Part shown: piece by piece, positions 16,936 through 21,249 of the stretch
Layout: each line of letters begins with the position of its first letter
Position numbering within the stretch: position 1 is the first letter of the stretch
Source of the DNA: a virus
Lineage: Duplodnaviria > Heunggongvirae > Uroviricota > Caudoviricetes
Virus record (IMG/VR): IMGVR_UViG_2700989234_000006
DNA: 22,418 nucleotides
Strand: one strand, 5' to 3'
Notes under the pieces: model-generated
Told to the model about the DNA's origin: nothing
The model's input: only the letters and a program-made list of their open reading frames with translations
Database searches by the model: none
Program-made: the position numbers and the translations under genes

Positions 16936-16966
16936 AATAAAAGCCCGCTTAAAATATCGCGGGCTT
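16931..16966 (-). terminator. Hairpin with a T-tract on the minus strand; likely terminator of the minus-strand cargo operon, possibly bidirectional
   Basis: AAGCCCGC (16941-16948) pairs with GCGGGCTT (16959-16966). On the minus strand the hairpin is followed by TTATTTTAAA. The flanking genes converge here. Confidence 0.5.
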
Positions 16967-17054
16967 CGAAATATAAATGTATTTTCAGAGGCTAGAGCTT
17001 AGGATATCTCAGCGGCAATTAACTTATGAGGGATAGCTAAATACCAGAAGATAA

Positions 17055-17945
17055 TTAGTTTTTACTATTTATCTTTGTTTGTGGTTCTCCTTCAGCAAGC
17101 TCAGCGCCAGTGACAGGATTGATGTCTTCATGGGATTTCAACCTTGTTGCCATAGCTTTTATCATAGCTTCTTGCTTGGTCGAAAGATTTATCGAGGCCT
17201 TCCCATCCCCACCGTCAACCGCTGGAACTGGATCGGAAACATAGTCAAAGTTTTCATCACTGTTCCAACTACCTCTGACGTCTTCACCTTCTGACATGTT
17301 GTAATATACGTTTTTGTATTTCTCAATTGGTGGTAATTTCCCTGGTGGAAAGGTGTTACGAATTGAATGTAATGCTTTTTCAAATGAAAGCATGTGTGCT
17401 GCTTCCCTGGTCATTAAAAATGCCAGAGTGTCTTTTACTCCAGGATCATCAGTAACATTAATGAGACGTTCGTAAATGATCTTTGCCCGAGCTTCAGCTG
17501 CAATATTTGAACGAAGATCGGCCGTGACTTCGCCAATAGTATCAACATAAGCTGCAGTCCAGGGTACTCCAGCTGAATTAGTTAATGCCGGGCCTCCTCC
17601 GTAGAGGAGAGAAGTTATATGGCTGTCATTGCCATTTTGAGTTAAGGAACGGTAAAGCTCAGCTTCATTCTCAGTTCCTTCAGCAAGTGCTCCTTTTGCA
17701 CCTTTGTTGAGCATACCAACAAGAGAACCAATAATTTCGAGATGACTTAGTTCTTCTGTTGCTATGTCCATCAGCATATCCCTTCGGCCTGCATCTTCAT
17801 CACTTAAGCCTTGAGTGAAGTATCGGCATGCTGCTGCAAGCTCACCCTGTGGCCCGCCGAATTGTTCTAAAAGTAGATTAGCCAAGCCTGGGTTTGGCTC
17901 ACTTACACGTACTGTATATTGAAGTTTTTTCACGTGTCTAAACAT
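17055..17945 (-). CDS. katN: Manganese (non-haem) catalase, KatN-like
   Basis: 296 aa. N-terminus MFRHVKKLQYTVRVSEPNPGLANLLLEQFGGPQGELAAACRYFTQG is the characteristic Mn-catalase / ferritin-like start. GAGGAGG lies just upstream of the ATG. Sits immediately downstream of yciE, as in the Salmonella yciGFE-katN operon. Confidence 0.8.
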   Translation of the reverse strand: MFRHVKKLQYTVRVSEPNPGLANLLLEQFGGPQGELAAACRYFTQGLSDEDAGRRDMLMDIATEELSHLEIIGSLVGMLNKGAKGALAEGTENEAELYRSLTQNGNDSHITSLLYGGGPALTNSAGVPWTAAYVDTIGEVTADLRSNIAAEARAKIIYERLINVTDDPGVKDTLAFLMTREAAHMLSFEKALHSIRNTFPPGKLPPIEKYKNVYYNMSEGEDVRGSWNSDENFDYVSDPVPAVDGGDGKASINLSTKQEAMIKAMATRLKSHEDINPVTGAELAEGEPQTKINSKN

Positions 17946-17963
17946 AATGCCTCCTCAAAAGAA

Positions 17964-18411
17964 TTATTTTTTGGCTTCAACTCCATCAATTTCAGATCTG
18001 ACCATGAATTGCTCAGTGGTGTCAGGAATATGGTTAAGAAGCCATTCAGCCATTTGTTTTTCTTCATTAAGAATTGCTTCAATAATGGGTGCTGAAGCTG
18101 TATCACCCGCATTTTTGGCTGCTGCGAGAAGAGATGTGTAACACGCAATTTCAAATTGTTCGAACACATAGCCACTGATCGAACCTTTGACAATTTCATC
18201 AGATGGAAAAATTCCACCAATGGATTGCCCAAACGCGGCCATTTTACTCATAGAGTCTTTAATGACAGAGCGCGAAATATTATTACGATCAAGTATGCTT
18301 TCAAGCTGTGAAAGCTGGTTCTTAGTTTCGCTAATGTGCTGCTCAATTCTGGAACGTAACTCTGGATAGTTTTCTATCCGGCTGGCCATAGACTCAAGCA
18401 TTTTTTCAGCT
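17964..18411 (-). pseudogene. yciE: yciE-like gene (DUF892, ferritin-like), 3' fragment of 146 codons, cut off by the IS insertion
   Basis: The frame is open up to the IS boundary at 18411. The translation ...EKMLESMASRIENYPELRSRIEQHISETKNQ... matches E. coli YciE as remembered. Confidence 0.8.
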
Positions 18412-18465
18412 TGAACCGCCCCGGAAATCCTGGAGACTAAACTCCCTGAGAAAGAGGTAAACAGG

Positions 18466-18792
18466 ATGACTAAAAATACTCGTTTTTCCCCCGAAGTCCG
18501 TCAGCGGGCGATTCGTATGGTTCTGGAAAGTCAGGATGAATATGACTCACAGTGGGCGGCAATTTGTTCCATTGCCCCAAAGATTGGCTGTACGCCGGAG
18601 ACTCTGCGTGTCTGGGTTCGCCAGCATGAGCGGGATACCGGGGGCGGTGATGGTGGGCTCACCAGCGCTGAACGTCAGCGTCTGAAAGAGCTGGAACGTG
18701 AAAATCGTGAACTGCGCCGCAGTAACGATATCCTTCGCCAGGCTTCCGCTTATTTTGCGAAGGCGGAGTTCGACCGCCTCTGGAAAAAATGA
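18466..18792 (+). CDS. IS3-family transposase OrfA (helix-turn-helix / leucine zipper)
   Basis: [41 protein letters not shown]...[39 protein letters not shown] matches IS629/IS1203 OrfA as remembered. Confidence 0.85.
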
Positions 18793-19679
18793 TGCCACTG
18801 CTGGATAAGCTGCGTGAGCAGTACGGGGTCGGACCGGTATGCAGCGAACTGCATATTGCCCCGTCAACGTATTACCATTGTCAGCAACAGCGACATCATC
18901 CGGATAAACGCAGTGCCCGTGCGCAGCACGACGACTGGCTGAAGAGAGAGATACAGCGCGTATACGATGAAAATCATCAGGTGTACGGTGTGCGTAAAGT
19001 CTGGCGTCAGTTGTTACGGGAAGGAATCAGGGTGGCCAGATGTACAGTGGCACGTCTCATGGCGGTTATGGGACTTGCCGGTGTTCTCCGGGGTAAAAAG
19101 GTCCGTACGACCATCAGCCGGAAAGCCGTTGCCGCAGGCGACCGCGTAAACCGTCAGTTCGTGGCAGAACGACCTGACCAGCTGTGGGTGGCTGATTTTA
19201 CTTACGTCAGCACATGGCAGGGCTTCGTCTATGTGGCGTTTATCATTGATGTGTTTGCCGGATACATCGTGGGGTGGCGGGTTTCATCGTCTATGGAAAC
19301 GACATTCGTGCTGGATGCGCTGGAGCAGGCGTTGTGGGCCCGTCGTCCGTCTGGCACCATCCATCACAGCGATAAAGGCTCTCAGTATGTGTCACTGGCC
19401 TATACGGAGCGACTAAAAGAAGCCGGATTACTGGCATCAACAGGGAGTACAGGCGACTCGTATGACAACGCGATGGCTGAGAGCATCAATGGTCTTTACA
19501 AAGCGGAGGTAATACACCGTAAGAGCTGGAAAAACCGTGCAGAAGTGGAACTGGCCACACTAACGTGGGTGGACTGGTATAACAATCGACGATTGCTGGG
19601 AAGGCTGGGCCATACTCCTCCGGCAGAAGCAGAAAAAGCTTATTATGCTTCCATCGGAAACGATGATCTGGCAGCCTGA
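18789..19679 (+). CDS. IS3-family transposase OrfB (DDE catalytic domain), in the -1 frame relative to OrfA
   Basis: 296 aa with the integrase-core region (...[31 protein letters not shown]...[11 protein letters not shown]...). An A6 run at 18784-18789, at the OrfA stop, is a plausible -1 slip site for an OrfAB fusion. Confidence 0.85.
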
Positions 19680-19721: not shown

Positions 19722-19783
19722 GCTTGTTTCTCCATCGCATGTGCATCACGAAGCCAGTCATGGTAATGTTCAATTCTATTCAT
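19722..19783 (-). pseudogene. yciE: yciE-like gene, 5' fragment (first 20 codons plus the start of codon 21), separated from the rest by the IS
   Basis: The reverse complement reads ATG AAT AGA ATT GAA CAT TAC CAT GAC TGG CTT CGT GAT GCA CAT GCG ATG GAG AAA CAA GC (MNRIEHYHDWLRDAHAMEKQA). After removing the IS and one GCT copy it joins in frame to the 3' fragment. Confidence 0.75.
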
Positions 19784-19819
19784 AATCTGTTTATCCTAAA
19801 AGAAATTGAAGTCTATAGT

Positions 19820-20326
19820 TCAGGAGTTATCCTGAGCTTTTTTATTAACGTTATTAAATGCCAGATCTGTTAATTTGACATCAGTAGCTTTTTCCTCTTC
19901 CAGTGTTTCTTTCAGGAGTTTAGCCGCTTTTTTATATCCTAATTGCTCAGCGAGTGTTACCAAAGTGCCATAACTGGCAATTTCATAGTGCTCTACTTTT
20001 TGTGCTGCAGCAATCAATGCTGCATCACGTACTTCATTTTTATTAGTGCTTTCAATTACCTCATTCGCCTCTTCGATAAGTCCTTCCATTGCGGCACACT
20101 TAATTCTTTTCAATTTAAGACCATCTTCAGAATCAACAACCTGATCGATGCGTTCAATTTGACCATGTGTCTCATCAAGATGTGACTGAAAAGCAGCGGT
20201 TAATTTATCACTATATGCAGAGCGACTAAGTTTAGACAGTGCCTTTGTTAGTTGTTTCTCAGCACTGTATGTATCCGATAATAAGTGGATGAAGATATCT
20301 TCAACAGATTTAATTTGCATAATCAC
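19820..20326 (-). CDS. yciF: YciF-like stress protein (DUF892, ferritin-like)
   Basis: 168 aa. ...VEDIFIHLLSDTYSAEKQLTKAL...VRDAALIAAAQKVEHYEIASYGTLVTLAEQLGY... matches E. coli YciF as remembered but is clearly diverged. GGAG lies upstream of the ATG. Confidence 0.8.
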   Translation of the reverse strand: MIMQIKSVEDIFIHLLSDTYSAEKQLTKALSKLSRSAYSDKLTAAFQSHLDETHGQIERIDQVVDSEDGLKLKRIKCAAMEGLIEEANEVIESTNKNEVRDAALIAAAQKVEHYEIASYGTLVTLAEQLGYKKAAKLLKETLEEEKATDVKLTDLAFNNVNKKAQDNS

Positions 20327-20340
20327 TCCAGAGTTTTCAC

Positions 20341-20360
20341 TGCGAGCCCGTAGGCTCGCA
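20341..20360 (-). other. Perfect 8-bp stem, 4-nt loop hairpin between yciG and yciF
   Basis: TGCGAGCC-cgta-GGCTCGCA. No T-tract follows on the transcribed strand, so it is not a typical terminator. Confidence 0.4.
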
Positions 20361-20398
20361 GTTAGCTTCAGTTATTCACGAATGTAGGGGATGATAAA

Positions 20399-20581
20399 TT
20401 AAGAGTCAGATTTACGGCCGCCACCATGGCTATTCTGACCACCTTTTTTCCCTGCTTCTGATGCTCTTTGCGGATCGTTTTTAAAATTACCGCCACTATG
20501 TTGGCCGCCTTTACGACCAGCGTCAGAAGCTTTTTGTCGATCTTCAGCGAAATTACCTGCACCGCCACGATGTTCGGTCAT
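20399..20581 (-). CDS. yciG: YciG-like KGG-repeat general stress protein
   Basis: 60 aa, MTEHRGGAGNFAEDRQKASDAGRKGGQHSGGNFKNDPQRASEAGKKGGQ..., with repeated (R/K)KGGQ motifs. AGGAG lies upstream of the ATG. Confidence 0.8.
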   Translation of the reverse strand: MTEHRGGAGNFAEDRQKASDAGRKGGQHSGGNFKNDPQRASEAGKKGGQNSHGGGRKSDS

Positions 20582-21249
20582 ATCATTTCTCCTCTGATTT
20601 TCAAATTGTAAATAACATGTGCCTTGTCAGCACCCAATTAACTCTAGTAACAAATAAGAAAGTGTCAAATAACAGATTGGTATACGCATTTTGATGTGAG
20701 AAATAATAATTGTAAAAAATGTGCGCTCAGTGAGTATAATCTATTGATATCTTAGTGATTAACGGAAAGTTTAGGTTGTAACTCAAAAGATTAATGAACC
20801 TAAATTTACATTTCTATATCTTTTGATGTGTATGGCGTTGTTTTTCTCAATAAGAATACTCTGTAAAATAATTCAATCGTAAGATGGTGGTTGTTTATAT
20901 TTTTTTGAGATAGTTCCTAATAGAGCCCATCCCTTGAATAAATAATTGTTTTAAAATTTCGTCTAAAGAACTAATTACAAGAAAATTTATATAGTCCAAA
21001 GAATCATGATTGTACTTAACCATAAGATTTGAGCGTAAAAATTAATGCGCAGCACGTCGTATGCAAGAACGTGCTGCGGCTGGCTGGCGAACTTTCGATA
21101 GTGCGAGTATTGAATGATTTTCAGCCGTTGCCGATTTTACTATGTTTTCAGTAGAACACTTAGACAAAACTGAGGCACACAAATCTTTGCACTGGATTGC
21201 AAGGCTTTGTGCTTCTCTGGAGTGCGACATGTTTGATAACAAAAAATTA

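Follow-up and report, generated by a model that had tools for sequence, protein, structure and literature searches.

What are four bacterial stress genes doing at the end of a lambda-like phage genome, and can they still act as a unit there? The question is raised by the viral contig IMGVR_UViG_2700989234_000006 (Caudoviricetes), in which relatives of yciG, yciF, yciE and the catalase gene katN lie on the minus strand between the tail fibre assembly gene tfa and the phage attachment site attP. The window analysed is the entire contig, 22,418 bp long, which comes from a draft genome assembly. We put a probability of about 0.9 on the following reading: the module is a horizontally mobile form of the general-stress operon yciG-yciF-yciE-katN of enterobacteria, which lambda-like prophages carry at their right end, between tfa and the P arm of attP, as an independently transcribed "moron", and in this copy it has been broken by the insertion sequence IS629. 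The sequence-only reading had proposed a four-gene minus-strand operon between tfa and the sib/attP region. Its genes, their order and their position stand, while the operon as an intact unit does not, the unreported IS629 splitting yciE. The parts of the module, from left to right, are:

16941-16967, minus strand: intrinsic terminator 3' of katN, from sequence and folding
17055-17945, minus strand: katN, manganese (non-haem) catalase of 296 amino acids, open reading frame (ORF) intact (PF05067)
17964-18411, minus strand: 3' part of the yciE-like gene, codons 22-168, a pseudogene fragment (DUF892, E = 1.5e-38)
18412-19721, plus strand, antisense to the operon: IS629 (IS3 family), 1,310 bp, from the match to annotated IS629, the junctions and Pfam
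18747-18863, plus strand: ALIL frameshift pseudoknot of IS629 (Rfam RF01497)
19722-19783, minus strand: 5' part of the yciE-like gene, 21 codons, from reading the junction
19820-20320, minus strand: yciF-like gene for a DUF892 ferritin-like protein of 166 amino acids, intact (PF05974, E = 3.3e-54)
20399-20581, minus strand: yciG-like gene for a KGG-repeat general stress protein of 60 amino acids, intact (PF10685, E = 1.1e-16)
20641-20668, minus strand: predicted operon promoter, from a cross-genus alignment
20669-21140, no strand: AT-rich spacer upstream of yciG, about 33% GC

The four genes and the IS629 insertion

The gene identities rest on Pfam, on matches to the PDB and on near-identical characterised proteins, and these bear out the proposal that the ORFs encode homologues of YciG, YciF, YciE and a Mn catalase. 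All four lie on the minus strand between tfa and attP in the order yciG, yciF, yciE, katN, with the Pfam assignments KGG, DUF892, DUF892 and Mn_catalase. A Shine-Dalgarno-like sequence precedes each of them and, with IS629 removed, the intergenic gaps are 78, 36 and 18 bp. They are real genes and not chance ORFs.

The most informative protein is KatN. Residues 1-270 match PF05067 with E = 5e-87 (291.8 bits, against a cut-off of 27), and the alignments to Mn catalases in the PDB extend over 240 residues (6J42/4R42, E = 4e-47; 1JKU, E = 5e-35). Within the motifs GELAAA, EELSHLE, NIAAEARA and TREAAH the Glu and His residues are identical to those of Anabaena KatB, the conserved positions tested being E35, E65-x-x-H68, AAEA and E-x-x-H. 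By comparison with the structures of 1JKU and KatB, these Glu and His residues would be the Mn ligands. For the YciE homologue, the match is to the solved structure of E. coli YciE (PDB 3OGH), with E = 1e-96.

The operon interval is 4.1 kb long, and four such genes need about 2.8 kb, so that extra DNA must be present. This is IS629, which fills one third of the interval and is 99.8% identical to annotated IS629. It has the inverted-repeat ends TGAACCGCCCCGG at both termini and is bounded by a 3-bp target duplication, GCT, at 18409-18411 and 19722-19724. Its orfA (18466-18792) and orfB (18789-19679) are on the plus strand and carry the Pfam domains HTH_Tnp_1 and rve; the ALIL pseudoknot, which serves the programmed -1 frameshift between them, scores 121.5 bits against a gathering score of 50. 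The insertion lies between codons 21 and 22 of yciE. The 5' piece of the gene runs into the IS629 end and gives a 33-residue hybrid ORF (19685-19783), and removal of IS629 together with one GCT restores a YciE ORF of 168 residues, identical to the copy in E. coli NS-NP030. On the reading of these junctions, YciE is destroyed in the present copy.

It would still be conceivable that this genome has an intact, working operon that serves lysogenic conversion, given that the ORFs of yciG, yciF and katN are whole and that promoter and terminator are both present. The target-site duplication around an IS629 inside yciE, and the hybrid ORF in which the 5' fragment ends, make this extremely improbable. 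The suggestion that the module is a candidate for lysogenic conversion is therefore doubtful as far as the present copy is concerned, the operon being broken by IS629.

The insertion resembles the degradation of prophages by IS629 and IS600 seen in O157:H7 and Shigella, in that an element of the IS3 family has inserted with a 3-bp duplication and has created a pseudogene; the integrase gene cut by IS600 at the contig end of the window is a further likeness. In contrast to those insertions, the yciE::IS629 junction was looked for and not found among 5,426 complete E. coli genomes, IMG/VR viral contigs and metagenome contigs. The 33-residue hybrid ORF is on record in a single contig, CXGR01000064.1 of assembly GCA_001260275.1, which is the window itself. 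A look-up of the 145-residue YciE fragment gave as its sole match a 1.25-kb contig without IS629.

What remains of katN expression is a separate matter. Because 1.3 kb of untranslated, antisense insertion sequence lies between the promoter and katN, polarity of IS629 most likely lowers or abolishes its expression. We consider it unlikely, though worth keeping in mind, that katN is still expressed despite the loss of yciE, by antisense read-through of IS629 or from a promoter at or near the left end of IS629, possibly free of RpoS and H-NS control. The gene has kept its terminator and a strong Shine-Dalgarno sequence of its own (GAGGAGG), and there are minus-strand promoter-like sites in the 3' part of yciE, at 18304-18277 and 18268-18241. 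The ends of IS3-family elements can also form hybrid outward promoters. However, the two sites score 9/12 and shuffled sequence has about as many of the kind, the operon strand inside the IS629 end has a weak hairpin resembling a terminator (19712-19700), and the finding that RpoS is essential for katN transcription in enterohaemorrhagic E. coli (EHEC) argues against a strong internal promoter (PMC5363993).

The module also has its own control signals, and the ribosome-binding sites, AT-rich upstream region and terminator hairpin described from the sequence alone are all present. The predicted promoter consists of TTGACA, a 16-nt spacer and TAGAGT (20668-20641); the -10 element is directly preceded by a C and followed by TAA, both of which are typical features of sigma-S promoters. 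No other promoter-like match in the region scores as well (10/12). When it is aligned with the yciG promoters of K-12, Salmonella, Enterobacter, Klebsiella and Phytobacter, the blocks TTTGAC and CTA..TT.A prove invariant. At the other end of the operon, the terminator has a 9-bp GC-rich stem and a T-run that reaches 16933 and overlaps the tfa stop codon; its fold has an energy of -16 kcal/mol (z = -4.26). A consensus terminator scan overlooked it because its loop is 10 nt long, and it was found by reading and folding. The spacer upstream of yciG, with 33% GC, accompanies the module in all carriers, and in prophages integrated elsewhere its conservation extends to about 21143. It is presumed to be a target of H-NS.

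On the favoured reading, transcription of intact copies starts at the conserved yciG promoter with its sigma-S-type features, below an AT-rich region presumably silenced by H-NS, runs leftward through the four genes and ends at the hairpin abutting the tfa stop codon. The products are a hydrophilic KGG-repeat stress protein, two ferritin-like DUF892 proteins and a dimanganese, haem-independent catalase, which clears H2O2 in stationary phase.

Cargo slot, carriers and chromosomal relatives

The phage features that flank the module, and the tail genes to its left, are:

4153-6732, plus strand: tape measure gene, a lambda-type tail gene
9135-12548, plus strand: J, a lambda-type tail gene
12619-13218, plus strand: lom, a lambda-type gene
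13277-16354, plus strand: stf, a lambda-type tail-fibre gene
16354-16935, plus strand: tfa, the last phage structural gene (PF02413, E = 4.6e-44)
21240-21281, minus strand: sib / tI retroregulation hairpin of the lambda int region, aligned to annotated HK97 sib
21427-21441, plus strand: 15-bp core of lambda attP, GCTTTTTTATACTAA, an exact match with 0 expected by chance
21515-22312, minus strand: lambda-type integrase gene (int), 3' two thirds only (PF00589, E = 1.3e-40)
22313-22418, no strand: end of IS600, within which the contig stops, 97.5-98.3% identical to annotated IS600 copies

The module had been assigned to a cargo slot in the position of the lambda b region, and comparison with related phages agrees with this. 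In HK97 the slot is nearly empty: tfa and sib/attP lie within about 230 bp, and HK97 aligns with the window only from 21039. A prophage beside smpB in GCA_024765955.1 (L098) has tail genes 99.4% identical to those of the window up to 16916, which places the left edge of the slot in the last 20 bp or so of tfa. After tfa, at 13726-17588 of its own sequence, it carries a GIY-YIG protein, a cytosine-methylase-like DNA methylase and an EcoRII-like restriction enzyme. The presence of restriction-modification cargo at the same site identifies the slot after tfa as a point at which cargo is swapped. Between the shared spacer and sib, some 98 bp of the window (21141-21238) have no HK97 counterpart. 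This stretch lies inside a minus-strand ORF of 73 residues (21042-21263) without database support.

An intact module, 99-100% identical to that of the window, is present in 382 of the 5,426 complete E. coli genomes, in every case on the chromosome. It is always at the end of a prophage, and occupies at least four chromosomal sites: ybhB/bio (the lambda attachment site), a site near ompT in O157:H7, zinT, and yecD/aspS. The carrier in NS-NP030 is a complete lambda-like prophage: int and xis are at one end and tfa at the other, with cI, O, P, Q and the lysis genes in between. One carrier that is a complete lambda-like prophage sits at the classical lambda attachment site. In complete prophages, phage sequence on either side runs into the module without a break, at 99-100% identity.

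No phage genome with the module turned up among 50,697 phage records searched at both nucleotide and protein level. The only matches in these records were to IS629, to the chromosomal yciE in which prophages of the ompW site end, and to two Salmonella-type katN fragments of 1.5-2 kb. A plasmid collection gave no match to the module. The two short "phage" records, OR851627.1 and OR845539.1, encode a KatN 84% identical to that of the window, which is the level of the Salmonella chromosome, and look like fragments of bacterial DNA rather than phage genomes.

The module thus has the features of a b-region moron. Its place is between the final tail gene and attP, where HK97, HK106, lambda and L098 lack it or have something else instead; it has its own promoter and terminator; and its base composition (39% GC, against 56% in the tail genes) is unlike that of the phage. 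Like the lambdoid morons of the lambda b region, it is transcribed against the late genes from its own signals. It differs from the typical moron, which is a single gene, in being a four-gene stress operon of housekeeping type, and unlike other lambdoid morons its relatives are core chromosomal genes of the Enterobacteriaceae.

These relatives agree with the sequence-only reading's account of the chromosomal loci. In Salmonella the arrangement is trpA-yciG-yciF-yciE-katN-ompW, and the order yciG-yciF-yciE-katN is shared by Enterobacter, Klebsiella, Leclercia and Phytobacter. In K-12 it is trpA-yciG-yciF-yciE-ompW, without katN, so that yciE is directly beside ompW. The K-12 genes (b1259-b1257) are paralogous to those of the window and the promoter blocks are conserved, but about half of the third codon positions differ. 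The expected divergence from K-12 is found in YciE (88% identity in amino acids, 78% in nucleotides) and YciF (80% and 73%), as well as in YciG (83% and 76%). By codon position the differences are 22/6/85 in yciE (169 codons) and 28/11/94 in yciF (167 codons), and their concentration at third positions indicates long divergence under purifying selection. At these distances in sequence the module was not copied recently from the host locus.

The Salmonella enterica operon is alike in gene order, spacing and aligned promoter, with amino acid identities to the window copy of 84% (KatN), 83% (YciE), 80% (YciF) and 88% (YciG). It differs in being a fixed chromosomal locus between trpA and ompW, whereas the window copy is on a phage, has neither gene in its vicinity, and is at least as close to Enterobacter, Klebsiella or Phytobacter as to Salmonella. 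Salmonella KatN is said to be a sigma-S-dependent non-haem catalase (Robbe-Saule, 2001); control of the operon by sigma-S, YncC and H-NS is reportedly the subject of the same work and of Beraud in 2010, and Beraud et al. of 2010 are said to have mapped the regulation of the yciG promoter by YncC and H-NS. Among 100,044 species, each represented by one genome, the best matches to KatN are in Kosakonia and Phytobacter (86-87%), followed by Salmonella (84%), Enterobacter (82-84%) and Klebsiella (81-82%), and the closest species is not the same for all four genes. The module is therefore an old, separate lineage with no sampled donor.

The comparisons also bear on whether the window might simply hold the ordinary chromosomal yciGFE(-katN) locus of its host, flanked by unrelated phage remnants. 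Prophages do integrate beside the true yciE locus at ompW, and the phage records PPompW and P-EibA end in a chromosomal yciE that is about 79% identical to the window. But in K-12 and Salmonella the chromosomal locus lies between trpA and ompW, neither of which is in the window, where tfa is on the left and attP and int are on the right; the nucleotide identity to K-12 yciGFE is only 73-78%; the flanks are phage sequence that continues into the module in complete prophages; and the module occurs at several chromosomal sites, always at a prophage end. Searches against chromosomal yci loci and lambdoid prophages thus place it at prophage ends and not at the trpA-ompW locus, and we give the chromosomal explanation virtually no probability.

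The remaining features of the tail region can be noted briefly. Stf contains a long repetitive stretch rich in Ala, Ser and Thr (13600-14700), where there is also a strong AT skew (up to 0.41) and there are long spurious ORFs on the opposite strand. Comparison with prophages that are otherwise 96-99% identical (L001 and L097) gives mosaic breakpoints in the C-terminus of J (11632-11869) and in distal stf (14764-15665), a pattern that would fit swapping of host-range modules. In the 3' half of tfa (16697-16895, plus strand), the Rfam family IS009 (RF02111), a candidate small RNA, is matched over its full length with 227.9 bits against a gathering score of 117; the match overlaps the coding sequence of tfa. 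Matches to CssrB (29.5 bits, gathering score 76) and to DdR13 are weak and were judged to be due to chance.

The attP junction and the state of the phage

The attP core is exact, and sib and the arms are homologous to those of HK97 and lambda. The integrase gene is 96-98% identical to those of lambda, HK97 and HK106 up to 22312, where the homology breaks and IS600 begins. On the left side of the core, the window shares 99.9% identity with the attR side of those E. coli prophages in which the module is intact, and this homology ends at 21445. The last 992 bp of the window, from 21427 onward, are a 100.000% match to an attL-int'::IS600 remnant in CP000038.1 (Shigella sonnei Ss046) and in similar genomes. 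In CP000038.1 the remnant lies between ybhC and an ipaH gene/ybhB/bio, and its own P arm is only 90% identical to that of the window. The sequence therefore changes partner exactly at the attP core, from the carrier phage on the left to the S. sonnei type on the right. The host is an IS-rich Shigella-type genome.

In the S. sonnei Ss046 remnant, a position after the tail-fibre remnant that is equivalent to the cargo slot is occupied by an ipaH-type gene with LRR_TTSS and NEL E3 ligase domains (5031-6794 in L108; 4989-6752 in L099, L100, L102 and L103).

A change of partner exactly at the core can arise in two ways. Either the phage carrying the module was integrated by Int into the attL of the resident remnant, giving B-O-P' / new prophage / P-O-P' / old int'::IS600, or an excised circle was merged by the assembler with the near-identical remnant. 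With either, the window's int is unlikely to be the working integrase of the carrier phage itself.

A simpler view would be that the window is a vegetative or circular free-phage genome, and that the int beside attP is its own. The order of tail genes, cargo, P-O-P' and int is indeed that of vegetative lambda, and the attP core is intact. This int, however, is cut by IS600, and a phage with such a gene could not have integrated alone. The perfect identity to the S. sonnei remnant that starts at the first base of the core, and the divergent P arm of that remnant, also speak against a free phage, which we regard as improbable.

We retain the mobile, IS629-broken moron as the best description of the locus, with several points that weigh against parts of it. 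The path from attP into int'::IS600 may be a choice made by the assembler, and the sequence fits a tandem prophage and an excised circle alike. The assembly is a draft, in which the internal sequence of IS629 may likewise be the assembler's choice among repeats. The polar effect on katN is a probable one, and read-through or a cryptic promoter could yield some katN transcript. Finally, the scan for consensus promoter-like sites found 10, against 8.8 expected in shuffled sequence; as the scan is not enriched, the promoter call rests on the cross-genus conservation.

The O157:H7 copy and the significance of the module

In pathogenic E. coli a prophage-borne yciGFE-katN operon is already known: its annotation goes back to the O157:H7 genomes, and there is published work on how it is regulated and on its catalase. 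In O157:H7 EDL933 it is Z1924-Z1921 (the yciG/F/E-like genes and katN) on prophage CP-933X, the catalase being ECs_1652 in strain Sakai. The four genes are in the same order, with a nucleotide identity of 99.0-99.5% per gene; YciG is 100% identical and KatN is identical at 294 of 296 residues. As in the window, the module directly follows tfa at the prophage end. It differs in being uninterrupted, where the window copy has IS629 in yciE, and in belonging to a different prophage, near ompT. It is also followed by a methyltransferase gene and not by lambda attP, the homology on the right side falling to 94% and ending at position 21083 of the window. In O157:H7 strain 3384 the module is followed by a gene for a class I S-adenosylmethionine-dependent methyltransferase (L002, 11831-12499), a tfa fragment and ISEc8. 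The module end of CP-933X is a patchwork.

The genes Z1922-Z1924 are RpoS-dependent, with a 35- to 137-fold effect (Dong and Schellhorn, 2009; PMC2907692). Z1921 was named KatN by Wan et al. (2017), who describe katN as being in an operon with z1922-z1924 on CP-933X, homologous to Salmonella yciGFEkatN, and measured a catalase activity of 268.3 U/mg (PMC5363993). In the same work the O157 copy was protective against H2O2, and deletion of its katN impaired growth under oxidative stress; katN transcription in EHEC required RpoS, was promoted by OxyR, and rose more than 450-fold on deletion of hns; and secretion of KatN dependent on the type VI secretion system was reported, a claim from a single laboratory (PMC5363993). 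The window KatN differs from the assayed Z1921 at 2 of 296 residues. RpoS dependence and H-NS silencing of the present copy are inferred from the 99% identical O157 copy.

It follows that the hypothesis of a phage-borne catalase and stress module, and most of the tests proposed for it, are largely in print already for the O157 copy. The operon itself carries little weight as a discovery, since its regulation and catalase function have been published. What the present analysis adds is that this copy is a pseudo-operon disabled by IS629; that the module travels with several lambdoid prophages and occupies several sites, beyond the "cryptic" CP-933X; that none of the sampled species representatives has a chromosomal locus near enough in sequence to have donated it, the identity of KatN reaching 87% at most; and that the site after tfa is a point of cargo exchange. 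There is also a lesson for annotation, which is to look for IS elements before declaring an operon intact.

A more tentative idea, which we consider possible but would not favour, is that the P-O-P' junction is the footprint of recent Int-mediated activity of a lambda-like phage carrying the katN operon. No such phage has been isolated, and the 50,697 deposited phage records lack the module; it would be the live vehicle by which one 99%-identical stress and catalase module reached about 7% of E. coli genomes, as well as a host of S. sonnei type in which IS629 then disabled the module. If this is true, the transfer of katN, and its cost or benefit in the new host, would be directly testable.

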